Source of the DNA: Podarcis liolepis
Taxonomy: Eukaryota
DNA: 64,000 nucleotides
Strand: one strand, 5' to 3'
Assembly (NCBI GenBank): GCA_965112155.1
Contig: OZ218105.1
Shown here: positions 7,930 through 64,000 of the stretch, in pieces
Numbering within the stretch: position 1 is the first letter of the stretch
How the letters are laid out: the number at the start of each line of letters is the position of its first letter
Program-made: the position numbers and the translations under genes
Notes under the pieces: model-generated
Database searches by the model: none
Seen by the model: the letters and a program-made list of their open reading frames with translations, nothing else
What the model was told of the DNA's origin: nothing

Positions 7930-7977
7930 AGCCCAGAGTGGCTGGTGAAACTCAGCCAGATGGGCGGGGTATAAATA

Positions 7978-15784: not shown

Positions 15785-16073
15785 TGAACCTGAAGGAGTG
15801 TCTCCACCCCCATCGTTCAGCCGGGACACTGAGGTCCAGTTCCTTCACGGCAAGAAGTGAGGTTGCAGGGAACCTGGCAGAGGGCCTTTTCTGTAGTGGT
15901 GCCCACCCTGTGGAACGCCCTCCCATCAGATGTTCAAGGAAATAAACAACTATCTGACTTTTAGAAGACATCTGAAGGCAGCCCTGTTTAGGGAAGTTTT
16001 TAATGTTTGATGTTTTATTGTGTTTTTAATGTTCTGTTGGGAGCCACACAGAGTAGCTAGGGAGACCCAACCA
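15785..16073 (+). mobile_element. L2 LINE 3' fragment ending at a gap
   Basis: Homologous to 21096-21340 (cagagggcc...ccctgtggaacgccctccc...aaggcagccctgtttagggaagtttt). Confidence 0.8.
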
Positions 16074-17903: not shown

Positions 17904-18882
17904 CCTATGTGACTTCATGCAAGACTTGACAGGGTTTGCTCAAAGGTTCCCAGTCACGTGTTGGTATCTGCTCTGACTGAATATGAGTCAGTATGGACAA
18001 TATATGTGAAGCAATCAGTGAAGTTCAGGTTGTGAGTGAAGCAACCATGCACTTAGCCTCATTCATATTCCCTAAATGTGCCTTGCAAAGAGGTCCAAAA
18101 GGTTTTCTTTTTCAGAGTCCAGCAGCAGTAGTAATAGTGTGCTTGAACATATAGTACATTAGCCAGCCTTCACTAGCAGAACACCAGTAAAAATGCAATT
18201 GAGAGGAGGGTAGGAGAAGAAGACAGCTCAAGGCAGCCTTGTATAGGGAAGCTTTTTAATGTTTAATGTTTTACTATATTTTTATATATATTGAAAGCCA
18301 CCCAGAGTGGCCACCTAGTCAGATGTATGAATAATAATAATCATAATCATAACAACAACAAATTTAGCATCTCCTTCCCCACCTCCTGTCTCAGGTGAGT
18401 GCTTGCATACTGCCTGCCTGTACCTCTTGCCTTCCGACAGTCCCAGATTGCTCTAACTGGCTTCATCCAACCCAGAGTGACCCAGGGTTGTTGCAACCTG
18501 GCTCTGCCCAGGCCTGGATTCTGTTGAATTGGCCTAATTTGTTTTGCAATTTGGGTTTGGGCCAAATCCAGCGCACAGCCCTAGTATGTAGCCCTCTGGA
18601 GACAGGCACGCATGCCAAAGGAGGAGACCTGGAAGAAAGATGACAGGAAACATGAATCACCTAAACCTCTTCTCTTGCTCTTTCGGTGGAATCATGTGCA
18701 ACATGATATTCTTTGTCCCATTAAAAACGAAACTTGAGGTTGCCATTTTTATTTTATTTTTTGAATCAAAAAAATGTATGGTATCAACCCTAGCCACCCC
18801 AAAAATTAGTAAGCCACATTGAACTCAGTGGGCCTTAGTTCCAAGTAACATGAGTATGATCGAGCTGGCAGAACCTTGTGGT

Positions 18883-20988: not shown

Positions 20989-21511
20989 ATAATAATAATA
21001 ATAATAATAATTTATTATTTATACCCCGCCCATCTGGCTGGGCCTCCCCAGCCACTCTGGGCGGCTTCCATAAAAACCAAAAATGCAATAAAATATCACA
21101 CGTTAAAAACTTCCCTGAACAGGGCTGCCTTAAGATGTCTCCTGAATGTCAGGTAGTTGTTTATCGCTTTGACATCTGCTGGAAGGGCGTTCCACAGGGC
21201 GGGCGCCACTACCGAGAAGGCCCTCTGCCTGGTTCCCTGTAGCTTTGCTTCTCGCAATGAGGGAACCGCCAGAAGGCCCTCGGTGCTGGACCTCAGCGTC
21301 CGGGCAGAATGATGGGGGTGGAGACACTCCTTCAGGTATACTGGACCGAGGCCGTTTAGGGCTTTAAAGGTCAGCACCAACACTTTGAATTGTGCTCGGA
21401 AACGTACTGGAAGCCAATGCAGGTCTTTCAAGACCGGTGTTATATGGTCTCGGCGGCCGCTCCCAGTCACCAGTCTAGCTGCCGCATTCTGGATTAGTTG
21501 TAGTTTCCGAG
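20989..21511 (-). mobile_element. Young 5'-truncated L2 LINE (ORF2 C-terminus plus tail)
   Basis: ORF 21096-21470 DHITPVLKDLHWLPVRFRAQFKVLVLTFKALNGLGP...WNALP...FRRHLK; (TTA)n tail. Confidence 0.9.
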
Positions 21512-22682: not shown

Positions 22683-23183
22683 CCCATACTTCACATTTGC
22701 TTTACATGTAGATTTGGATATTTGTTTGTCAATCCTATATTTGATTCCAGATTGACAGTAGTAAGAAGCCAACACATACAGACGGCAAACTCTTTTAGAG
22801 AATCAAACAGGCATTAAGCTTTGCTATGCAGAAAAAACTAAACTGGTGGGGAATGTGAGTATGGGTGTGTGTATGATTTCACCATCTTACCATCAGGTTG
22901 CTGCTATACCTTTATATTTCCCAGGCTTGGACAAAAAACACACAATCTCCATTGGTGGCCAAGCCAAGCCGCCATGATTGTTGTACTGGGGTTGGAAGGG
23001 AGGGGACATCGGTTTAAAGATGTTCTGACTCAAATGCTATCCACAACCTCCCTTCTGATCCCTTCTGACATCTTACTAATTCCCATCTGTCCTTACTGTT
23101 TTTGCCTTTACTAGCACCTGAAAGGGGGAGCGAAGTTGTTGACTTAGGGGCAATGGTGTGTGAGAGAGGAAATTACATGAGAC

Positions 23184-23185
<2 letters not shown>

Positions 23186-23247
<62 letters not shown>
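23186..23247. repeat. Compound microsatellite (TG)n(AG)n
   Basis: Directly visible. Confidence 0.95.
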
Positions 23248-23904
23248 ATATGGCACATATAGGGCCCAAAACTCACAGTCTGCCCTTGAGCTTGCGGTTT
23301 CTCCCTAGAAAAAGCCAGCACAGGGATCCTATTCTAGATCCAAAGTCTGGCATGGGGCGGGGAGATGTTATCCCTTTGCTCCCTACTGTGGTCCTGATGC
23401 AAATTAGAGCCCTGGAATTTGCTTGGGGAAAGGAGGTTGCAGGTGCAGGTGTGCACTCTGATCTGAATCAGGCCCCTGTGCTAGCTGTAGAAGAAAAGTT
23501 ACAGACCCCAAACCAAAACCACATGATTAATGTCACGTGTAATTTGTCCCTTGTCCTGCAGAAATGGAAAGAGAGGGCCAGATTCAGCTCATCTACTGTG
23601 CTAGGAGAAGCCAAGGCTGGAGCAAAGTAGCTTTTTCTTCTCTCTCTTCACTTGCATCTGGCAAGCAGAAATACTTGCACTGACAAAACAAAACAATCCT
23701 ATTAGCGCAATGTTAAATTCCGCCCAAAGTTTGCAATTTTAAAACTCCTGTTATCTACATCTTTTGCACGTATGAGGTTGTCCTATATTCGCACTGACCT
23801 CATTGGACTTTGGGTACATCTTACATTAAGTAGAGATGATGATGATAATAATGAATTATGCATGTGTTGCTGAAAAAAAAAATCATTTTCTTCTTTATTT
23901 CCCC

Positions 23905-24350
23905 CCGCTTTAATGATTAAAAAAATATAGTCAGTCAGGCTGCCAAAGTGCTGAACTATTTAAATGTGAAATCTATTTAATTCTGAGGTTTAATGCACCA
24001 CTGTGTATCTGCTGTTTCCTGCTGTAGTACACATATCATGAATGTAATAAATCATTATGCTATTGCTGATGAGTTATAAATGCTCACTGTGCCACCGCAA
24101 ACAACTGTTTCCTTCATAGAACTGACGGCTGTCGCTACCTGACAAGTTACCTTGCCATTTTTAAATGAGAGCCCGAGTGTCAAATAATATCACGAAGAGG
24201 TGCCTGGGCGCCAGAAGTGATTGATAAGTTTTTAATTATAAATCAAATTTTAATTCAGTTGCTCTGTTCGCTCAAGTATAACTTATGAAATTTAAGGTAT
24301 AAAATATTCATACGTGCAATAATTGAGTTTGTAGCGCTGGTGGGTCCCAT
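23905..24350. promoter_or_regulatory. Candidate conserved non-coding enhancer with PBX-HOX/MEIS motifs
   Basis: No recognisable repeat, AT-rich but CpG-retaining; TGATTTAT (rev) at 24047 and 24238, TGATTGAT at 24218, TGACA at 24140 and (rev) 24178, many TAAT cores. Confidence 0.45.
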
Positions 24351-24667
24351 TGCTCAGGGATGCAAAACAGCTCACCCCCCCCCGCCCAATTGGAACGACG
24401 ACTTTTGTAAGCTATGTGAGGCACTAGTGAAGTGGCTGCTTGCTGTTCTGATAATGTCATTACTGGGGTACGCTACAGATTATTACATAGCTCCCCCACC
24501 CCCATTTAGAAGTAATGACAGCTAGGAATGTCAAAGAATTATGATGGCCAATGGAATAGAAATTGATAATGTTTGCTTATTTTTCCCATGTCTGGAACAA
24601 AAATCAGTGCAGTGAATATGTTTGGTATTCACTATTGCTGATGACTTCAGTCCACAAATGACATGTA

Positions 24668-24910
24668 CAGTGGTACCTTGTGTTACATACGCTTCAGGTT
24701 ACATACACTTCAAGGTTACAGACTCCGCTAACCCAGAAATAGTACCTCAGGTTAAGAACTTTGCTTCAGGATGAGAACAGAAATCGCGTGGAAGCGGCAC
24801 AGCAGCAGCAGGAAGCCCCATTAGTTAAAGTGGTGCTTCAGGTTAAGAACAGTTTCAGGTTAAGAACGGACCTCCGGAACGAATTAAGTACGTAACCAGA
24901 GGTACCACTG
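24668..24910. mobile_element. Tigger-like MITE, TA TSD, with a small internal duplication
   Basis: ta|CAGTGGTACC...GGTACCACTG|ta; same family as 5261-5486. Confidence 0.9.
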
Positions 24911-27476
24911 TACAGTAATTGATTCCCCCCACTCTTTGTCTCATTTGCATGGTGTTTCCTTTGCATTCAAATGCATGGAGTGGAAAAAATTAATGACAGC
25001 ATAAGTTACAAAAGTTGCACAATTAATTATGAAAACTAAGTAAGTTTGTCACAGCAGACAGTAAGATTAATAATGTAGTTTTTGGCAGAAGACAAACGGA
25101 AGCAGAATGGGAACAGTTCTGCGTACAACAAATACAGGGTGGAATGGAAAATGATGCCTTCCATAATTTTTTGCTGCTTTAGGCAAGCCTTCCACCACCA
25201 CCACCCTTTTTTTTTAAAAAAAAAATCAAATTCAAACCCACCCCTCTCCATGACAGAAAATGCTATCCTATTCTGTGGGGAACAAATAGCCCCATGAAAA
25301 TGGGGGGGAGGGGGGAGGAAAGAGATTTCTGTTCCAGTGTTAATTAACACCAATTTAGTTACAAATGAGACATCTACAAGTGGTTCTCATTTAAACCTTG
25401 AAAAATCCTATCGCTTTGTTAATGGTGTTCAGTGAGTGGTGGTGATCAGTAAGTGGCTATGACTGGAGAAATGATTTTGCAGATTACACTGTGCAATCTC
25501 AAATGTGCTCTCTCTTTCTCTCCCAGCAATTTCGAAAACACATTTGCACAGTCTCTGAAAGGTTCATCAGATAGAGCTCCATCATTTCATACCATCTAGA
25601 ATCCAATCCAATCCTTATGGTAAATTGCCTTTAAACCTGACTCTGGTACAGCTCCATTGAAAATGATGGGTGGGTACAACAACCGTTTCCCAAATGTAGT
25701 TGTTCGGTCAGCTGCCAATCAGAAATGAATGCTTTCCCAATTTATCAGGTGCAAGAGTAGTATATGTGGCAAAATGGCAAGCCACCCATTGTTTAGTGGG
25801 AGTTGGCAGATATGAGAAATGGACAGCTGGACTTGACACTCTTCCACATTAGTTTTGTTGATTGGTGGTACTTCTGGCCAATCAAATAACCCCTTCTTGC
25901 TTGCCTGGCTATTTCCCCCCTTCATCCCTCCCCTCCATGTGAAGTGTGTCTTTGGCCTTCATTCCTTCGAGCTTCATTTGAACTTTCTTTATTTTGCCAT
26001 CTGGGGTGCTTCAGAGAAGATGTTTGCTCTCCTCACCCACCTCTTGGCTCAGCGGAGCGGATTGCAACAAAGTTTACAAACTGTTGAGTTAGAAGAATAT
26101 CATCACCGGCTTCTTCCCACTGTGAATCTCTTTATGAAGGAAATTCCACTCGGGGATACTGGCAAAACTCAAGCATCTTTGTCACTGTCACCGTTCATAC
26201 CCTTCCCAATTTGCTGGATATTCCCAATATCACTTCTGGATTTCTTGTAAATCAAAACCAAGCACTATTTGATTACCTCTCTCTGTAGTGGAAGGCGTTC
26301 CACAGCAGGAGATGCCGGGGAAAGCGTTATAGGATTTATTCATCTGTTTGCTTCCTTGGCTGGCAGTTTATTTCTAGTATTAGTTCCGTAATAGGTGGGG
26401 AATATATATTTTTTCTGTGACTGCTGTTGTGGAGCTTAAAAGGAGCCAAGCTGCCTCATCTTCCAGACCAGCCCTAGTAGCAGAACAGTTAGCTGTTCAT
26501 TGGGACTGAGAGCCGTTTCACACATTATGCAAAGCAAAACGAAGATGAGCATATAATCAAAAGGAAATTGCCATCAATCATTCTGCGCACACATGCTCAT
26601 AAACCAGCATGTGCCCCATTCACACTTTATGTTTGTAGGCAGGTCATGCAGATACCTCTTGTGTGCCGTTAAAAATATAATTTGTGAAATGACTCTTAGG
26701 GCGGAACTAGAAATGTGTGCAGCAAAACCTGGACAGCTGCTTCCATTAGGGCACAGCAGCTTTAGGTTTGAAGAGGAGATGTTGTGAGGAGAAGGGGGTA
26801 TTAAATCTTGTTGATGCTATCCAAAAAAGTCAGCCCATTGCAATGTAACAACGTGGCAAAGTTAGGTTGATTCATTTCAGTGGATCTGCTTTGAATCAAA
26901 CTCATGACTCCTGCCCCTGTATCTGCCTAATTTTCTGCTGCAACCTTTCCTCCCAGTCCTTCCGCTCCAGGATTTGAGATGCACATAAGGGTAAACCTGT
27001 ATCTGGAATCTTGCAGAGGATAGACAGGTCGCTGGGGAGTAGTGAGTTTCGGCAGCAAGGGAAAAGCAGGAATGTACATTTTGGAGATGAGTGTGCATGC
27101 AGTCATCCTGACAGCCACCTGCACATGTATACAGGAACCACGAACATGTGTCCTATGTAACACCTGCACAGAATAGTGTTAGTAAGAGCATGGTGAGAGA
27201 ACATCACCTGTACTCCTTTGTCTCAGGAGGTCTTTATCTGAGACACTCAAACATCTTTTATTTCTCAGGAACACTGTGTTAACTCAAGCCCAAAGGGAGC
27301 ATTTAATTGATTTCTTCTTCTTCTTGCTTTTTTCAAAGACTTTATGATAATTATCCTCAGCTGTTGCAAAGATAAAATGAGGATGACCAGCATAGTTTCA
27401 TTTTTCTTTTCTTTGTTTATGTTCACAGAGTTGTCCTGGGCAAGTTTCACTGCTGGGCTCTTTATTTAGTCTAAAG

Positions 27477-27681
27477 CAATATTCCATATGGCCCCCTGTC
27501 CTTCTGTCCCCCAGATATTCCAAGGGGGACACAGGTGAAATTATTTAATTTTAAAAATTATAAATAAAACATGTTTACAAACAAAATAGCTACCTTTCTA
27601 CCAGTAGGATAGCGGGGAGCACAGGAAGGAAACAAGGTTAGAAGGGGGGCCACACAGTCGGAAAAAGGTTGAGAAACACTG
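27477..27681. mobile_element. hAT-Charlie-type MITE, 8-bp TSD GTCTAAAG
   Basis: gtctaaag|caatattcc...ggttgagaaacactg|gtctaaag; TSD resembles the NTCTAGAN target preference. Confidence 0.7.
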
Positions 27682-28378
27682 GTCTAAAGAATGAAAAACC
27701 CATTTAGCAGCAGAATACTGTGACCCTTCAAATGTTTTTTTTGGACTCCAGCTGTTATCAGCCACAGCCAATATGGCCAATGGCTAGGGAATTATGGGAG
27801 TTGGAGTCCAGTAACCTCTGGAAGGCTACAGGTTCCCCATCTCTGCTATAACACAATGACATTTAAAAAATAAGGGGTTTCTCCTTCCTTCTTGGCCCAG
27901 CCTGAACTTGGGACAGGATAAGCAGTGAACCTCTGATGAAGTCCACCACCTTCTCTCACCCAAACACACACACACTTGAGCTTTTCCCTGTCCATAACTT
28001 TTTCAGCTTAAGAAGCCCAAAAATTCTTACTGCCAGAATGTGTCCACATTCTTTGTGAAAGCATCAAAACCAACTTCAACCAGTCCCACCTTCATTTATT
28101 TTTTAAATGTAGTTTGTGGGGGAAAGAGTTTTCAAAGACAGGGAAGAACAGTGGTTTAAAATAAGTGAAAACAGAACCTATTGGGGGAAAATTATTCTGT
28201 ACAAACAATAAAACATTCCTGTTTTGTTCAGCATTACCACTCAAAAATCAGAATTGCTACATAGGATAATGAAGTCATCCAAAAGTCTGTAGGCAACAGA
28301 CCAGTTCGGTATTTAATAATAGATACTATTAAGAACAATGACAGTTGCTAGATTTGCCCACCAGTATGGTTAAGGACA

Positions 28379-28732
28379 GGGGACGTAGGTGGCGCTGTGG
28401 GTTAAACCACAGAGCCTAGGACTTGCCGATCAGAAGGTCGTCGGTTCAAATCCCCATGACGGGGTGAGCTCCAGTTGCTCGGTCCCAGCTCCTGCCAACC
28501 TAGCAGTTCGAAAGCACGTCAAAGTGCAAGTAGATAAATAGGTACCGTTCCGGTGGGAAGCTAAACGGCATTTCCATGCGCTGTTCTGGTTCACCAGAAG
28601 TGGCTTAGTCATGCTGGCCACATGACCCGGAAGCTGTACACCGGCTCCCTTGGCCAATAAAGCGAGATGTGTGCCGCAACCCCAGAATCGGTCACTACTG
28701 GACCTAATGGTCGGTGTCCCTTTACCTTTACC
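28379..28732 (+). mobile_element. Sauria SINE (Squam1), 13-bp TSD
   Basis: gggacg..ggtggcgctgtgggttaaacc...tttacctttac tail; TSD tatggttaaggac at 28365 and 28733. Confidence 0.92.
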
Positions 28733-29599
28733 TATGGTTAAGGACTGGACAGGCCATAATTTTTCCAGTTATTGCCACTTCACCTTCGATCTCATCTATA
28801 GAAGTGCTGTAATTGTTGGAGAGGCTACCACTAAATAGGGCAAGGCCCAGTACTCAAAATGGCAGAATCTCAGGATAAGCAAGGAAGCCTTCCCTTCACA
28901 AAGGCACTCTGCTCATTCACAGAGGCTCTATACCAGCATCTTTACAACAGGTGTCATGAACATCTTAAGGGTGAAAACAAAAAGGTGTCAGGTTTCCTGA
29001 CTTTCCCACACTGCTTTAGCAGAGGTAGAACATCTAAACTCACTTTTTCCAACAGTTTTGGAATGAGAATTTCATTTGCCGGAAGATCAATATCCGAGTT
29101 TTAAGGAAAAAAACAAGATAATGAAACAAGTAGATCCCATCTCTGCAGGCTCAGTAGACTGCTATTACCATGGAAAGAAGGAAATATTCATCAGGTAAAT
29201 TATTCATGGAAATGTTCGCTTCTTTGCAGCAAGCAAAATGAGGCCTTGTGCAGCCCTCTCTCTGTTTGGGGGGCACTGCTGTATCGACATTTTGAAGAGA
29301 GAGGGAAGGCTTCACCTTGAGTGGACGTAAGTGATTGATGCACAAGCTTGATGTGGAGCCTAGTCCTAGGCAGAGCTAGGCACGCCTTGGCCGATTTATT
29401 TCATAGAATCGTATAGCTGGAAGAAGGACGATTCAAGTCACCTAATCCACACACACCCTCAATGCAAGAAACTCTAGTTCTAGTGCATTCCCTGCAGATG
29501 GTTATCCAGCCTCTGCAAGGAAACTTCCCCTGTAGAAAACTGGCTTCATTGTCAAAGTGGTCTTTCCACCAAGATATTTTTTTCCTTAATGTTCAGTGG

Positions 29600-30124
29600 C
29601 ATAGCTGTCAAGCGTCCCTTATTTGGCGGGACAGTCCCTTATCCCAGCGCCATGTCCCGATGCTGTCCCATATTGATAATGTCCCTTAAATTTCCCGGGT
29701 TTCAAAAGAAGCAGCTCCTCTCCCTCCCTCCTTGCCAGCCACTTTCTTCCCTGTGCCCCCGGTCACATCTCCCGTGCGGCTTGCTTGTTGTGCCATGCTT
29801 TTTGCGCTGCTGGCATCTGCCCTTCTCATCATCCATCACGGTTTGGGGGGGGGGGGAGAAAAGCAGAGACTGTGATGAGGTGGGGATGACTGATATATGT
29901 TTATGTGCTTTAAAATGAAATGAGAGCAGGCTTCCATTCAAAGGGTTAAACCCGCCGCTTTCCCTCCACGTAGAAAGCGCAACTTTGGCAACGAGGAGTA
30001 GCAGAACTGTTGCTATTAGCTGAGTTCTTTACTTTGGGACCTGTGATCCCTTATTTTGGCTGATGATCTCTTATTTTCGAGGCTGTTGGTCCCTTATTTT
30101 CAAATCTGAAAGTTGACAGCTATG
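29600..30124. mobile_element. hAT MITE (525 bp), same TIR as the 91-bp element
   Basis: ttcagtgg|CATAGCTGTCAA...TTGACAGCTATG|ttcactgg (7/8 TSD). Confidence 0.85.
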
Positions 30125-30251
30125 TTCACTGGTAATCTATTCTCCTGCACCTTAAACCCCTAAAATCTTTTCTTACCCTTCTGAGCAGCAAAGAACAAGT
30201 ATCCACCCTCTTCTGTGTAGCAGAGCTTCAGGTATTTGAATAATGTGATCA

Positions 30252-30781
30252 TGATGAGGAGATTTCACCCCTCCCATATCCAAGAATCTGCTGATGTTCT
30301 CTGCTGATTCTCCAGAGAGGAGGGGCGGTTTTCTGCTCTCTACTTATTCCGCTCCAGCACCACATCAAAGTGTCAGTCAGTGTGTCAGAGAGAGAGAGAC
30401 TGAGTGTTAGAGATCGTGTGTATAGATAAGGTTGCTGCTAAGAGCAGCTGCAGACACTCAGTGCAGTTCAGCATTCATTTTTGTTTAGACCTCATTTAGC
30501 TCTGTATATAGTTGTGTATTATAGTTGTAGATAGAATAAAGAAGATATTCTACGGAGCTGCTCTCCAAGTCGTTTATGCTCTGCTATACTCTGCTGTGCG
30601 ACGACTGTCTTCTTGTGGAAGTGAATCCGGTGCTCACAACTCTAAGCTGTGAGTCCACAGCACTTTGACCTGTTCCTGTGCAGAAGGTGGTCTCTGGAAG
30701 TGCTACCCAGCTCGCCTAGCCCAGTCCGGGCTGAAGTGAATGAGTCCAGTTGGTGGCACTGGCTCAAGGGTGATGCTGACA
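30252..30781 (+). mobile_element. Probable solo LTR (~530 bp), TSD CATG
   Basis: Interrupts the CR1 at atcatg; ends ...CTGACA|catg; AATAAA at 30535-30540. Confidence 0.6.
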
Positions 30782-33149
30782 CATGTCTGCTTTCCACCTT
30801 TCCCAGGCTAAACGTAGCACGTTCCTTCAGCCTTCCTTCTGCATTTGATCTCCAGGTTGTTGAACCATCATTCTTGCCCACCTCTGAACCCATTTCTATT
30901 TCCCTTCACTGTACTTAAAATGCAGCAGTCAAAAGTGGATGCTGTACCCCAAATGAGGTGTCAGTAGCTGTGCAGAATAAAGTGGAACTCTAGTTGTTGT
31001 GACTTGCAAACAAGGGATCTCTTAATGAAGCCAAAGATCACATTAGCATGGCTCGTTTTATGTTCAGCTTCTGATCAACTACAATTCTGAAATTATTTTG
31101 GCCTGTACTGCTGCCAGTCGAGGTATCTCTCATTCCACACCTGTGCATTTGATTTCCTCCCTTTCTTCTTTTGGGGACAGGGGTTGGAGGCTGAATGCGT
31201 AGCTTTGTACTTCCCTTTGTTATGTTTCATTTTGCTGATTTCCTCAGGGACAGATGCAGCAGTCAGGAGGATAGGGGCCCCAAAATCAGCCCACCCACAA
31301 TTGCCCTGCATACCTCAATTATTTTGGCTTTCCACTCCTCCTTCTCTATATTTGACCCTATCCTTCCTGTGGTTTAGTTTTTGTGCAAAAATGGAAATAA
31401 GACGTTGGTGGCTGTGGGGTTCCAATGAGGGAAGGGAATCAAAACTCTAGCTGTGTCAAAACAATTTTGCCCATTCACACTCTGCTGCAGAGGCAGGACT
31501 TGATAAGAGCTGTAATCCATAAGCTCTGGAGGGCACTAGGTTGTGGAAGGCTAATTCTGTGCAATGTCAGAATAACCACCACAAATCAATTCTGAAAATG
31601 CTATGGGAGGCTAGCACAGGAAACACTAGCCTACAACCATCTGACTGTACTATTGTATGGAAGGTCTGCAATAAGTAAATTAATGAAAGACAGCAAGTCC
31701 AGAGAGTAAGATACGTACATGTCAAAATCTCCTTCCACTGCTAGCTGCATCCATCCATGTTCTCACCATGAACTGCCCATTCATTTCAGATGCATCTTAC
31801 ATATGTAGCCCTCCTTTCCCCCCTTCCTCTTCCTTGTTTTACATGCTTTCATTTTCATTCACTGGCAATCCGCCAACTGTGAAAAGAGTAACTTGTTGCA
31901 AAGCATTTGCCTGGAGAATTTTGGGTCATGGTGCTTTGGCTGTGGAGATGGCTGGAGGCGTTTGGCTAAGCAACCTGTTCAGTGGATTGTGGATGCCTTC
32001 ATAGTTCTTCATGTGATGAACACTGCCAGTATCAGCTTACGGTCTGCATGGAGAAGCTAATCTGTCTTGAGTGGAAGGGATGGAGCTAGGCAGCAACATA
32101 CTTTACACCTTACCTCATGCCAGCTGAAACGATTACTAGATTTTATGGAAGCTCCTTTTTCTACAGTTAATGGCTTTATAACAAAAGCAGGAGGACCACC
32201 TCACCTCTCTGCATAGCTTTTCCTTCCTGATTATCACTGAGAAACAGACTAGAAAAGCTATGAGGAGAGAAAATGTTGCCGGAGACCAATGGAGATTTTT
32301 TTGTCTCCAGGTCTAGACTCTGCTAAGACAAATGGAGAGAGACACAGAATTGATCTGCACAATGTCTTTCCTTATTCCTAAGCCTAACTCGGAAAACACT
32401 TCCTGTTGCAGATGTAAGTGATTTTAAAATGGTATGCTTATTATTTGCAAGCATGTGTCTATAAATATTAGCAAGTGACTGATGTAATTGGGAGGAAAAG
32501 GGAAAGATTGCTAATGTAGTTTCATGGCCAAAGTAGGTGCTTGTGTGAAGATGTCCCTCTGTGTGTGGCGAGGCTCTCTCAAACCTGACCCACCCCACCT
32601 CGTTCTTCTCTCTTGATTCCACCTAATACTCACACTTTGAATGAAAAGAAGGCTGTGTTTTGGTGTTCATATTGTTCAGGAAAGTGCAGATTTAAAATAT
32701 CCACCTTTAAATGTGAACTGAATCAGATTACTACCCCATTCCTATGCCCAAATTATGGACCTACTCCTTCGGGAGGAGGGGTGCAACTGGTTAGCATGCA
32801 CGGATCCTGCAGCTACACAGGTTTAAAACAATGCAGCAATGCCTCCTTAAAGCAACAGGTCTTAGTGATGCCCTGTCGGTCTCGGGGAGATTAGTGCAGG
32901 TAATATGGGCAGTTTTTTGTTTTTGTTTTAATCTGTGGGACTATCCTCAAGAGCAATGGAGTATTATCAAGCTTTGAACGTTGTTTTGAACTCATGCAGT
33001 AGCAGGAGCCCCATATTCTGGCTAGATCCTCATCCAGTAGGTTTTTCACTTTTTAGAGAAGATGGGAAAGGAAGGCAGCCCTCAGACCACTTCATAATTG
33101 GAATTCATAATCAATTAAGGAATCCACTGTCAAATGTATAGATTTGAAA

Positions 33150-36795: not shown

Positions 36796-37194
36796 CAGTA
36801 CGTTTCCGAGCACAATTCAAAGTGTTGGTGCTGACCTTTAAAGCCCTAAACAGCCTCGGTCCGGTATACCTGAAGGAGCGTCTCCACCCTCATTGTTCAG
36901 CCTGGACACTGAGATCTAGCGCTGAGGGCCTTCTGGCGGTTCCCTCACTGCAAGAAGCAAAGCTACAAGGAACCAGGCAGAGGGCCTTCTTGGTAGTGGT
37001 GCCTGCCCTGTGGAATGCCCTCCCATCAGGTGTCAAAAAGATAAAAAACTACCTGACATTTAGAAGACACCTGAAGGCAGCCCTGGTTAGGGAAGTTTTT
37101 AATGTGTGACAGTTTAATGTATTTTTAATCTTTGTTGGAAGCCGCCCAGAGTGGCTGGGGAAACCCAGCCAGATGGGCAGGGTACAAATCATAA

Positions 37195-40625: not shown

Positions 40626-43544
40626 TTGAAGGGCAGTATAACAATTTAATAAATAAGTAAAATAAATATTGTTGGTCCCTCTTCCTTCCAGCCTACCAGT
40701 CCCAATGGCCCAGAGCCACCACTGTCTAGCTAGCTAGCGATCTGCACACATCACACCTCTGAATTTGTTCAGATTGGAGCAGGAAGATAAAAAGGAGAAG
40801 AAAATATTAAAACACTACAAGTGTAAGATCCCAAGTTTACACTAGGGCAAAGTGTTTCTCAGGCCACTGGGAAGGAAACACTTGTTCTTATTGAAGTTTA
40901 GATGGATTCGGTGGGCATGTTTTCCAAATGATTCTTCAAAAACAATTATGTCTACAATAATTTTCAGCTTCAAGTCATTCGTAAAGAAAGAAAAAAAAAG
41001 GCAGCATGCCACAGAGTTTGTCAACAAACCAAGAGAAAGTAAAAGCTACATGTGAAGCAATTCTCTATCTAAGCGCAACATTGCACACATTAGCACTTTT
41101 AACCTTGGCTAGTCAAGCAAGCAAGCAGGAGGTGGAAACTAGTGAATTTATCCTCTTCTTGAAAGAAAGGCTGCACATTTCTATGGCATGAAACTTCCCC
41201 GCACAATCAAGAGATGGAAGAGCTAGGTGCCTGCAGGGAACAATATGAAGTCAGGAATGAGTTCCATTTCTGAGCTCCCTCACCCTTCTTCACCACTTCT
41301 ATGCTAGCTTTGGTGCTTCATCCATGCTTTGATGGTTCATACCTATTATGTCTTGTTTTACATTATGTCTAAACCAGGGAACTCAGACAATGCCAGGGGG
41401 GAAAAGTCAGGAAATGATGTGAGGGATAGAAAGCGTGTTCCACTTCAGTATTTATTCCCAGTTTCACAAACCATGGTTTATGAAGCAGAAAAGGGCTACC
41501 AAAACACAGATGTGTTCTTCATTTTGGTAGGTTCAGCATCAAGAAGATACAAAGGTTTCACTAAAGCTAGGTGGTCGCTAGGTGGTGCATTTTGCACCTT
41601 ACTCTATGAGGCCAAATTGACAAAGCCAAATCAAAAGCCCCCCAGCATATTCCTTTCAAAACTAGTTTCACTTTCATTAAAAAAGTACAATAAATCCACA
41701 ATATATGCTTCTGAAACTAGATAATCAAATATACCTACATATATAGAATCCAAAATGCATATATTGATTCTATAAACCAACCAAGTGTTCTGCTTTCTAT
41801 TTAGTTTTATTTCATTGGTAACGATGTATCCATATCTGATGCAATCTTATTCTAACATTACTGATGCTAGCTTTGCCCTTGTATACAATTCTGAGTCCTA
41901 TGTTCATAAGGCAAATCTATCCATAATTTATTATTATGCAATCATTCTAGAGTAATTATTTTTGCTGCCTGATCCTTGTTGTTCGCTAGCTTGTGAGGTA
42001 ATAGGATTTCTCTCACAATGCTTGCAGCAATTTTCTGGGTTCTGCTGCTGAAGCATCTAATTGCTCTAATTTTTCAGCCTGATAGCTTATTTATTCTGAA
42101 TTATGGAACAGAAATTTGATGGTGGACAACATGTCGCTTCCAGGAAGCGAATCATACCTTGAGCTTAAGGTGAAGAGTAAAACAGATCGACAAGCTGAGC
42201 TTAAGTAACCAAACCAGCACAACCTTATATATGTTTAATCAGAAGCAGGTTTGACTGAGTTTAATTTGGCTAGTTTGATGGGTCTTACTCTCAAGCAAGC
42301 ATGCAGAGGATTGCACGGTACATTTTTAGGAGTGTGAAAACCTTCCTGTGAAATTCCGCAAGCCTTTCATAAATTATTTTTGCTTCCTTCAAGAGCATGC
42401 TGTTACTCCTCTTGGCCAAAATGTTCCTAGGACTTGTACTTCTTTTATGCATTCATCTCCAGATGGGAACCCTGTGCAAGTGAGATTACTGATTGTGGGT
42501 GAGGTAACTTGTTCTGCAGACATTCTGGGATCAAATCAGAAGCTGGGATGGCTTTCATAATTCTGGACTGTCCCTGGAAAATAGGAACACTTGGAGAGTA
42601 TGGGCTTATGTCACCGAAATTGCCTTGAAGGGTGCTTGCACATTTTCCTGTATAACTTTCCTTCTTGTAGGGCTAGGGAAAGGAAGGAAGGAAGAAGAAA
42701 GTCAGTCTGGCACCCCTTACAGACATAGGCCCTGGTGCAGGTACACCATTATTTATCTGACTGTGGTCACATGGCTCTGTATCCTTCTCCATGGTCCCTC
42801 AAAACAAATCAACATAGAAGAGGAATGCGTCTCAACAACTCTCAGGTTTATTCAGTGAACCGAAAGATAAGATCAACCCAGTAGCTGGGATGGGTTAACT
42901 TAACATTACACCACTTATGCTTTGCCTATCTTGTTTTTGGTCCTTCAGAGCTGCGAGTTCCAGTTTCCCTTTGAGATACATTGTCACCCACAGCTGTGGT
43001 TGTTACTGCTCATCTTCTTGTTTCAGGTTGGATGCAGTTGTAACAGACTCTCTTTGCTCACACCTCAGCCTCTACCCTTGGTCCTAACCAGCTGTAGCTT
43101 CAGCTACATTATAGTACTAGTCATGCCATTTCCCTTCCTAGCTATTCAGCTTCTTCTTACCCAAACACACCATGCTTCTTTATACACTATTTTCGTTTAA
43201 AAAGTACCTCTTGCCTTGTATGCCAGATCCAGTAACTCCTACCACTTGCTGCTCACTCTCAGTATCTAACCCATGTTCATCTTCCAATGGCTTGGTCAAC
43301 CATAACCCCTCTTCCCTTGTGTTTTCATCCATGACTTGTTCTGCCTCTGGATCTCCATTCTGGCTGGGTTCTTCTGCTCATCTCTCACATATACCAATCT
43401 TCAAATTAGATAAATAACTTACTTAAGTTACACTGAATTCAGTGGGACTTATGCCCAGGTAAATGGGGTTATGATTGCAGCCTGAATCAATGGGTTACTT
43501 GTAGCCAGTTCACTCTTAAGTATTATTTTCTACTTATGGAGCAT

Positions 43545-49394: not shown

Positions 49395-49620
49395 CAGTGG
49401 TACCTCGGGTTACATACGCTTCAGGTTACAGACTCCGCTAACCCAGAAATAGTACCTCGGGTTAAGAACTTTGCTACAGGATGAAAACAGAAATGGTGCT
49501 CCAGCGGCGCGGCAGCAGCGGGCGGCCCCATTAGCTAAAGTGGTGCTTCAGGTTAAGAACAGTTTCAGGTTAAGAACGGACCTCCAGAACGCATTAAGTA
49601 CTTAACCCGAGGTACCACTG
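49395..49620. mobile_element. Tigger-like MITE, 226 bp, TA TSD
   Basis: ta|CAGTGGTACCTCGGGTTA...TAACCCGAGGTACCACTG|ta. Confidence 0.92.
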
Positions 49621-49681
49621 TATAGGTCTTCTTATTCACCCCAAGATGTACAGCCCTGGTCCCTGTCACTCCCAGCTACAA

Positions 49682-49971
49682 CAGACCCTCCAAGTGTCCC
49701 TATTTTCCAGGGACATATCTGATTTAGAAAAGCCATCCCAGTTTCTGATTTGATCCCAGAATGTCCCACTTTTCTTTAGGACATCCCTATTTTCATTGGA
49801 GAAATGTTGGAGGGTATGGAGTTATTTGACTCCTGAGTTTTTTTGGAAGCAATCCTGTACAGGGATGGGTTTTTTAATGTTTAATGTTTTGTTATATTTT
49901 TATATATGTTGGAAGCTGCCCAGAGTGGCTGTGGCAACCCGATTTTCAATGGAGAAATGTCGGAGAGAATG
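49682..49971 (+). mobile_element. Composite MITE (CAGACCCTCCAA terminus, 6-bp TSD CTACAA) carrying an L2 tail
   Basis: ctacaa|cagaccctccaag...ttggagggtatg, spacer, L2 3' UTR, second end gaaatgtcggagagaatg|ctacaa. Confidence 0.7.
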
Positions 49972-51568
49972 CTACAACTTCCTATTTTTGCTTACTTCTA
50001 GCCATCTGTATTCCTAAACTAGCTGGCTAATGGGGAATAGACCGTGAATCTTAAGCTTCTGAGTACCAAACAGGGATTGCTGACCTTTATCAAAAATCTT
50101 TAATTCCCTTTATAATTCCTACAGATGTTTCTTCTGAGCAGGACCTTATAAATGTTTATAGTTATCTTGTTTTATTTATTGTTGTCAGCTCTGACAATTG
50201 TGTTCTGTGCTGCTTTCTTTTTTCTTGTGTAAATTGCTCGAGAAAGGCAGCCAAAAAAGTATTTTAAAGGAAACTTTTAAATAAAATTCACTATTATGCA
50301 TTTATTTAGTAAGTATTTCTACTTACAGCCCATCCTCCACTGAATAATTGAAGGGTGCACAACAGAAAATATGGCAGTTAATGTAATTATTAATAGAATT
50401 GATTATATTAAAAGTAATAAAATAAAAACAGTGAATCAATGACAATCTTAGTAAAACAACAGCACAGAACAACAGTGTAGCAGGACGGAAGGCGACCTCT
50501 CAACCCCTGTGATTTTTTTTTTTTTAATTTAGGATATCTAGTAAAACACAAGTGTAGGGATGGGCATATATGTCATTTTTCATCCATCTAAATTTATTAT
50601 TTTTCCAGTCCTATGTTCAGCACTCCACAGTTCCACTTCAGTTTGCAATGATTATTCTTTTAAGGTTCTGATGAAATTTCATCAGTATTTTACTGCAAAT
50701 TTCTCCCAATGTACACGTTTGCATGCAACCTTTCCTAATATAATATTTTTGTAGAAAAGCTTTTCTTAATATAATGCATTTCTGTTTAATAAATGTTGAC
50801 TCTTCAATAGATGCTAATTCCATCTGCAGAAGCCATCTCCTCTTTTGTGTGTGCATGTGTGAGAGAGAATTCCTGCTATGAGAAGGGAAGGAGATTTTGT
50901 GCTTCTGGCAAAGTACCATAAAGTTTGGGGGTGGTTTTGCTTATCATAATTCTAGATAAGGTGGCCAGGAGTAAACGCTGTTTTGCATTTGCCAGACTTT
51001 CCCATTAAATCAATTTCAGGCTGTGGTGCTGAGAGATACTCCTGAGTCCTCCATGTTTCCCACAGTATTTAGCCACCATAAGGAGGAGATTGTTTAATTA
51101 GAGATGTCTTGCTTAACGTCTCTGTTCAGTCGCATTATCCACCCCACCACCTCTCACTACTTTTAGTTAGGCTTCTCTGCCACCAGATAAAATAAAAGAG
51201 GATTTCAATCAGTTTCTCCCTTGCCTTGGATTACAGCTGCATTCATTTCAATTTGACATTTGTTTTATTTCCTGACTGATCTGATTTGAACGCAATCACT
51301 CTTGAGCAGGAGCAAGTAAGGAACTGAAAATAGACATCTTGACCTCATCCTCCAGCTATTCTCTTTGTCCTGTAGCCAGTATCATCTTCCTCCCTCTTCT
51401 TTTTATAGTTGTGAAAAACAAATATTCATTTCTCAGAAATGATGGGGTTACTTCAGAAGCTGTCTAAGCTCGGGGGTGGGGGCGGAGAGAGAGAGGTGAC
51501 TCTCAATTGTAGGAGAAGCAGGTGCCTTAGCCAGGGTTAACCCACCTAATGCCTGCCAGATGTTAAAC

Positions 51569-62689: not shown

Positions 62690-62897
62690 ATTGACTCAGC
62701 CAGCAGGTTGCTGGGCTGGCTGTTCCAGGTCGAGGAAGTTACAGCCATAGGAGTCAACTCCTAGGGACTGAGATACCTTTGCCCCCCAATAAAACATTTG
62801 AGGGGTTCAGCCCCCCCCCAAAGTTGATGGGCATTGCCATTCATACGGTGTGTGCGCACCACATCTCTGTGATCAATTATGTGGGGTGGTGCTTACC

Positions 62898-63247
62898 AAG
62901 ACCCTCCAAGTGTCACTATTTTCCAGGGACTGTCCCAAATTTACAGAAGCCATCCCAGTTTCTGATTTGATCCTGGAATGTTAGGGCGGCCCTATTTTCA
63001 TCGGAGAAATGTTGGAGGGTATGATGTTATGTGACACCCCCCCGCCCCGAGCCAAGGAGTAAATAACCATACAACCTTTAGAAGACATCTGAAAGCAGCC
63101 CTGTATAGGGAAGTTTCTTAATATTTGATGTTTTAGCATGTTTTTGTATATGTTGGAATTCACTTAGAGTGACTGGGGAAGCCCAGTCAGATGAGTGGGG
63201 TATATAACAAGAAGAAGAAGAAGAAGAAGAAGAAGAAGAAGAAGAAG

Positions 63248-63279
<32 letters not shown>

Positions 63280-63333
63280 GTGGTGACAGTGTAGGGCATC
63301 CCTATTTTCAACAGGGAGATGTTGGAGGGTGTG
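62898..63333 (+). mobile_element. Composite MITE (6-bp TSD CTTACC) carrying an L2 tail and (GAA)n
   Basis: cttacc|aagaccctccaag...ttggagggtatg, spacer, L2 3' end, (GAA)n, second end gttggagggtgtg|cttacc. Confidence 0.75.
63209..63277. repeat. (GAA)n microsatellite at the captured L2 tail
   Basis: Directly visible; source of the poly-R and poly-S ORFs. Confidence 0.95.
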
Positions 63334-64000
63334 CTTACCTCCCCCCCCCCAATATTTTGTTCAAGTTGGCACCCCTGGTTACAGCCCAAGATTACCCTGT
63401 TCCAAACTCACTAAGGCCAGTGAATATTGCTCTGGAGTAAGCTGTAAATGTCAGAAAGGTGTGTGTGTTTCAGCCGGTTCCTGCAGAGCTCCCAAGATTG
63501 CTCACGTAATACTTTGAGGATGCACAAATGTTGTTGTTGTTGTTACACTTTTACTGTATTTATTATTAAAAACATATCCTTCCCTGCCTAGCAACCATGC
63601 TTTAGGAGGTGACTGGTGTCTAGGCAGGCAGTCTTTCCAATCACTATCAACCCCAGTTTTCTCCCCATATCTCTTCCTTCCCCCTTTAACTATCTTTTTC
63701 TGTGTCTTGGCAGTGCTCCTTGAGATTGTCATGTTACTTTTGCATTCCTTTCGCAAGAGATTCTAGTGCAGAGGACAGCCAAACACTCTGTTTCAACTCG
63801 CTGTCTCTGTGTCAACACAATGCTCAAAGGAATACGCTTACATAAGTGAAGTTCCTCTCTTAACAACTTGTGCTGATGAAACATACACTAGAACAAAACC
63901 TAACGTGAAGCTTCCATCGATCTGGGACGTAGCCTAGTATCTGGACGTTTAATGTATATACGTATTCCCTATGGCTGGCTTCTTATCTTCCTTTTTGTAC

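Follow-up and report, generated by a model that had tools for sequence, protein, structure and literature searches.

Among described systems, MER6 is a Tc1/mariner MITE that received a retroposed SINE, spread and gave rise to a deleted subfamily (PMC6887750; this and the other papers cited are represented by those portions of their text that were available). Pack-TIRs have been described from animals, in low copy number and with host sequence as cargo (PMC8277862), and the seeding of microsatellites by LINEs is known in squamates (PMC6050309). Regarding target-site duplications, the hAT6 group, near Blackjack, is defined by a length of 6 bp, which is also found in IS3EU elements, with ends of the form TAYGG..CCRTA and inverted repeats over 30 bp (PMC12730594). 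Human composite and hAT families have also been described, none like the present element being shown in the available text (PMC5753468).

The element reported here (hereafter the composite) is a MER6-like MITE with hAT6-like duplications and no new class of element. It is distinguished by having its cargo between two copies of the right end and by sister forms that still survive. Like MER6 and MER6A, it consists of an internally deleted MITE with a retroposed non-LTR element and was amplified with long and internally deleted subfamilies (PMC6887750). A retroelement within a MITE, amplified with it from a single junction, was found in the composite as in MER6, with the order of events in the composite being the part that we infer. 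MER6 differs in its TA duplication and mariner ends, in carrying a V-SINE as opposed to L2, in numbering hundreds of copies per genome as opposed to about 10^4, and in that no duplicated end is described in the available account, whereas the composite has two right ends; furthermore, unlike MER6, the cargo-free sister form and L2 donor of the composite persist in the genome (PMC6887750).

Pack-TIRs and Pack-MULEs likewise hold foreign sequence between transposon ends and became multi-copy by transposition, but the cargo of the composite is the tail of another transposon, whose own enzyme probably inserted it; the composite also has a second right end internally, and its copy number is thousands of times above that of multicopy Pack-TIRs (PMC8277862). 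Rather than the host cargo with an identifiable non-TE parent that marks a Pack-TIR, an L2 3' end was found. LINE seeding in squamates also spreads simple repeats at a LINE 3' end genome-wide, with the difference that here a DNA transposon carries the tail, so that spread requires no reverse transcription once the first event has occurred (PMC6050309). The preliminary description of this locus overstated its novelty, as hAT6 already has 6-bp duplications (PMC12730594), Pack-TIRs occur in animals (PMC8277862) and MER6 is a precedent (PMC6887750). What stands is that no description of the family was found in the open literature searched, PMC10058329 included as far as its text was available; Dfam, Repbase and subscription papers lay outside the scope of the search, and the composite may already be present, unnamed, in an automatically built repeat library.

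Layout of the two copies and extent of the family

The window, the whole stretch of 64,000 nucleotides analysed (G000:C8:73656001-73720000, genome size 1.57 Gb), contains two copies of the composite on the plus strand, at 49682-49971 (copy 1) and 62898-63333 (copy 2). The repeat sequences point to a lacertid-like lizard. The order of parts previously claimed for both loci was confirmed by coordinates: left end, inner right end, spacer, L2 3' end and outer right end. The head of copy 1 (49682..49818), which has the bases of subfamily B, consists of the left end (positions 1-97 of a longer MITE, P2) and the inner right end (49777-49818; P2 789-830). It is followed by a spacer of ~20 bp (49819..49838, the end being approximate), an L2 3' remnant (about 49844..49940, 83% to the L2 consensus over 49854-49940) and an outer right end that alignment placed at 49938..49971, shortened and decayed. 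Target-site duplications of CTACAA were read from the window sequence at 49676..49681 and 49972..49977.

Copy 2 belongs to subfamily A. Its head (62898..63023, with the inner right end at 62982-63023), spacer (63024..63052, with a lengthened C run), (AAG)23 microsatellite, which occupies the L2 tail position (63209..63277), and outer right end (63292..63333) were located by alignment, and its L2 piece (63053..63204), the last ~20 ORF2 codons plus 3' UTR, matches a consensus built from 15 free L2 copies at 81%. The duplications, CTTACC, were likewise read from the window at 62892..62897 and 63334..63339. In copy 1, the L2 remnant shows the subfamily B deletion on its 5' side, and a deletion between the L2 3' UTR and the shortened outer right end fused the two directly, with loss of the simple-repeat tail. 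Copy 1 is consequently without a microsatellite, and of the two window copies only copy 2 carries one.

A lone parent-type left end of the same terminal family, starting CATAC, was identified on the minus strand at 42519..42602, and no right end was found for it. At 49396-49621, 60 bp upstream of copy 1, there is a presumably mariner-like palindromic MITE that has CAGTGGTACCTC at its ends and is flanked by TA; the same element interrupts many copies of the composite family. Five L2 3' ends in the window have no family ends nearby (7935-7973, 15935-16069, 18218-18311, 21020-21149 and 37056-37184).

Genome-wide, the 19-letter junction of inner right end and spacer gave 2,561 exact matches, with none for the reversed control. 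A 303-bp query returned 4,939 candidates, and 40 scored places, the window being one of them, cover most of the query at 78-83%. Five composites in an evenly spaced sample of 569,800 bases correspond to about 14,000 genome-wide (Poisson range roughly 4,500-32,000), and the family is estimated at ten thousand or more copies. The consensus measures about 344-388 bp and has no coding capacity. Subfamily A is 384 bp long; subfamily B (344 bp) lacks about 45 bp on the 5' flank of the L2 piece, has diagnostic bases of its own and made up 13/30 junction-picked composites by reading of their sequences. Both subfamilies were amplified.

The cargo is one 5'-truncated LINE, which we take to be an L2 in agreement with the earlier labelling, and comprises the last ~20 ORF2 codons, 3' UTR and tail, with a junction common to copies. 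The base from which the cargo begins is also where its alignment with 15 free L2 copies starts, but these copies extend further upstream into ORF2; their consensus is 89% alike to the cargo over 186 bp. In the evenly spaced sample, 4/33 L2 3'-core matches sit inside a composite. Perfect repeats of at least 15 bp were found at the tail of 14/33 A copies vs 0/11 B copies (the AAG run of copy 2 lies outside the copies listed). The claim that the element spreads L2 tails holds, and that for microsatellites holds in subfamily A.

Parent MITEs, L2-free forms and the arrival of the cargo

Two longer MITEs, P1 (~690 bp; L044:7150-8352) and P2 (~830 bp; copies at L168-L197), share the termini and 6-bp duplications of the composite and contain other internal cargo. 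The composite head is P2 1-97 joined to 789-830, i.e. an internal deletion of P2, and the outer right end is P2 786-830 (its last 45 bp), three bases longer than the inner right end. Head-only copies with a duplication were few (L094, L097 and L101 among 20 loci); a class in which true head-only copies and spacer-mutated composites are mixed (class M) was left out of the counts. P2 was also seen to hold pieces of other small repeats and an exon-like open stretch of about 53 codons, for which there was no Pfam match over the cut-off and no Atlas match.

A genome search for right ends with the 45-bp unit immediately after them gave 199 matches. This L2-free arrangement, form D, consists of the head plus one to many 45-bp right-end units, the unit being the same 45 bp as the composite outer right end, and copies at L257, L259, L266 and L278 are flanked by 6-bp duplications. 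The units extend to minisatellites of 28.4 units at 94% identity (L403, G000:C3:120.255-120.257 Mb) and of about 15 units (L271-L274, G000:C1:132.37 Mb). Alternating 45-bp and 35-36-bp units at L257, L262, L263, L279, L283, L314 and L315 suggest further D subfamilies.

Form E carries a nested MITE of ~135 bp, which has the ends CAGTGCT / AGCACTG and an 8-bp duplication and lies in the second unit, at one site and in one orientation, at 7/27 loci listed (form E loci being L258, L262, L270, L275, L276, L277, L280 and L324). Outer 6-bp duplications are retained by L262 and L275. Amplification of form E from one insertion site with such duplications indicates that D was a mobile master element, with the nested MITE as its second cargo. 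The composite, in turn, equals D plus an insert bracketed by TATGGA, this motif being located on both cargo sides in the B consensus and in the majority sequence of the loose contig ends from four other genomes. Subfamily A has a variable tail end, and its TATGGA is often damaged.

The reading that we favour, with a probability of about 0.68, is that the composite is a gene-less transposon of about 345-385 bp that arose when an L2 retrotransposed into a tandem-right-ended MITE, after which a hAT6-like transposase spread it via its outermost ends. The first step would be the internal deletion of the ~830-bp P2 that gave the head, with the last 45 bp of P2 as outer end, and the second the L2-free form D, of head and one or more 45-bp units with 6-bp duplications; both products can be read in the genome. 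Target-primed reverse transcription would then have placed the L2 where the two right ends of D meet, with duplication of TATGGA and the addition of about 18 further bases at the 5' junction. The composite would next have been amplified as A and as the deleted B, with growth of tail microsatellites in many A copies, as is observed. The transposase would have been of the hAT6 group, and the family may since have fallen inactive.

Insertions of the L2 clade in zebrafish have about 5-bp duplications and often extra 5' bases, and the 6-bp repeat and 18-bp extra are consistent with an L2 insertion on this basis (PMC4245944, in the available text). The spacer (20 bp) gave no good match in P1, P2 or L2, and likely consists of nucleotides added at the 5' junction of the L2, the first two of which complete the TATGGA repeat. 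A founder locus having the spacer without the inner right end was sought and rejected, as all 26 spacer matches not preceded by TG carried a decayed inner right end.

Pack-type or end-bypass capture, as claimed in the preliminary description, is less well supported than L2 insertion, although the claim of a real composite spread by transposition stood. Here a short element would have had 20 bp of flank and an L2 tail as its neighbours and would have acquired them by gap repair, template switching or pairing with a neighbouring P2 right end, with D formed by later TATGGA-TATGGA deletion. Animal TIR elements are reported to acquire sequence by such routes (PMC8277862, in the available text). The outer end retains three P2 bases absent from the inner end, as capture would explain, and D is not measurably older than A, their heads being indistinguishable, with a divergence of 0.064 (7 D) vs 0.066 (45 A). 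Gene conversion between inner and outer right ends was not significant (51 pairs, p=0.13).

One chimera of the kind capture would produce is known, in which P2 1-656 is joined to the L2 tail and right end of the composite (L171:1405-2202); however, it has no target duplication and its junction is unique among 40 matches, and it was rejected as an ancestral family for the latter reason. Capture is also opposed by the spacer never occurring without the inner right end (26/26), no parent copy of these 20 bp being found among the genome spacer matches or in P1, P2 and L2, and by the 6-bp repeat around the cargo, which would be a coincidence. The L2-free double-ended form and this repeat favour insertion of an L2, and capture is considered unlikely, though it is the strongest competitor.

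B-derived D forms, which later deletion from composites should leave, are nearly absent. Subfamily B makes up 13/30 composites, yet 0/11 D/E heads carry B bases, which argues against D being a recurrent deletion product of all composites. The pattern behind the 199 matches is biased against B-derived joints, and a B-type joint search was run as an offset. It returned 13 matches, spread over 8 loci, and at no locus could a B head be read (two composites with chance flank, three A-type heads, one long array and two without a readable head). Possibly, one early deletion between two TATGGA copies yielded the same D form. The order of events in the favoured reading, L2 insertion into D and then spread, is accordingly likely rather than proven.

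Movement of the composite as one unit

Target duplications were scored in 25 of 31 elements with both ends, including the two window copies. Flank identity at k=6 averaged 0.69, with 8 exact and 16 within one mismatch, as opposed to 0.20-0.30 at k=2-5 and 7-11, and the flanks of the inner right end gave 0 exact duplications at every k. A second sample of 30 copies was taken in genome order by the inner junction alone; the outer end was present in 26 and both ends in 22, and 9 of these 22 matched at 5/6 or better (shuffled mean 0.08, max 2 in 2000). Both samples support the earlier claims of 6-bp repeats at the outer ends and transposition of the whole composite, and tabulation showed the length to be consistently 6 bp. 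With 0 exact of 25 and 0 of 22 at 8 bp, the composite lacks the 8-bp duplication of a canonical hAT element.

The terminal inverted repeat is 12-13 bp long, perfect in P1/P2 and with one mismatch at position 3 in the composite. Inverted repeats, a locus-specific duplication fixed at 6 bp, short length, lack of coding sequence and high copy number were all found, as in MITEs. The composite moved as DNA, as one unit, with 6-bp duplications at its outer ends only.

That the element is instead a SINE-like retroposon, with a MITE-derived head and moved by L2 machinery, is favoured by the presence of an L2 3' UTR and its simple-repeat tail, the part recognised by LINE proteins. However, a retroposon of this kind would have copies ending at the tail and duplications of variable length. 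The 29 L2-tail loci examined divided into 13 with both right ends, 11 free L2 and 5 with neither, and a single right end was found at none of them, so that both right ends were present in 13/13 loci having either; copies thus stop at the outer inverted repeat and not the tail (13/13; 26/30), the duplication is constant at 6 bp, and subfamily B was amplified despite loss of most of the repeat tail. The SINE-like reading is largely refuted at the loci examined and is highly improbable.

The differing 5' sides of the L2 piece in copies 1 and 2 might point to separate MITE copies that an L2 entered independently or came to adjoin by chance. This reading is refuted, as that difference is the subfamily B deletion and the spacer and junction are common to 2,561 exact matches, supporting a single L2 acquisition as the founding event.

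Transposase, age and significance

A PF05699 search gave 62 matches (150 of 315 candidates scored); none of the 60 examined was bounded by composite ends, two look-alike copies being left out of the end check. Near these matches only nested fragments of the composite family were found, at L129 and L332. CATAC left ends numbered 70. Thirty of these were read as far as 1.5 kb, and 50 stretches, some of them at the same sites, as far as 4-7.5 kb. The classable left ends start as P1, P2 or composite, several matching only over the first 30-110 bp, and no match to long hAT ORFs was found in the 50 extended stretches. A transposase flanked by these ends, as suggested for follow-up in the preliminary description, was therefore not found among the PF05699 matches and CATAC left ends.

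Regarding superfamily, the composite ends are unlike those of IS3EU, which have the form TAYGG..CCRTA with repeats over 30 bp (PMC12730594, in the available text). The composite, P1 and P2 share the 6-bp duplication of hAT6, and the composite has short terminal inverted repeats, CA...TG ends and subterminal repeats, as hAT elements do. CA...TG termini are the rule among hAT elements. The composite is set beside hAT6 by description, no transposase having been found for it, and the putative assignment is one of likeness that draws on termini and duplication length.

In four related genomes, 22,778-32,688 contigs each align on copy 1, and loose contig ends pile up at 49682 and 49818 (417-499). 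Contigs crossing a junction of copy 1 itself were found in three of the four, indicating that its insertion is older than their split. At the orthologous sites, whose examination had been proposed earlier, no empty site, i.e. no joint skipping the element, was found among the joints listed for the four. Non-CpG divergence was 0.064-0.073 for A, B, D and E, and at 6-7% the family appears to be now inactive.

From copy numbers, we tentatively raise a rather improbable hypothesis, namely that the L2 tail made the element a better substrate, with a duplicated transposase-binding end and a stiff-DNA LINE spacer raising its mobility. Single-ended copies of 138 bp are rare, and double-ended copies of ~183 bp are about 13 times rarer than the composite (199 vs 2,561 junction matches), so that the form of 345-385 bp predominates. 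If true, a piece of a retrotransposon would in this natural example have enhanced the mobility of a DNA transposon, and LINE-type microsatellites and end-derived 45-bp minisatellites would be by-products seeded by cut-and-paste.

About one in eight L2 3' ends in the evenly spaced sample (4/33) was placed by a DNA transposon and not by retrotransposition. Annotation that splits the composite would overcount and misdate L2 activity, and would credit LINEs with microsatellites spread by a DNA transposon. One genome preserves the parent MITE, the double-ended form, two separate cargo insertions, a deleted subfamily and minisatellites of up to 28 units, and this preserved history makes the family a tidy model for the origin of composite MITEs.
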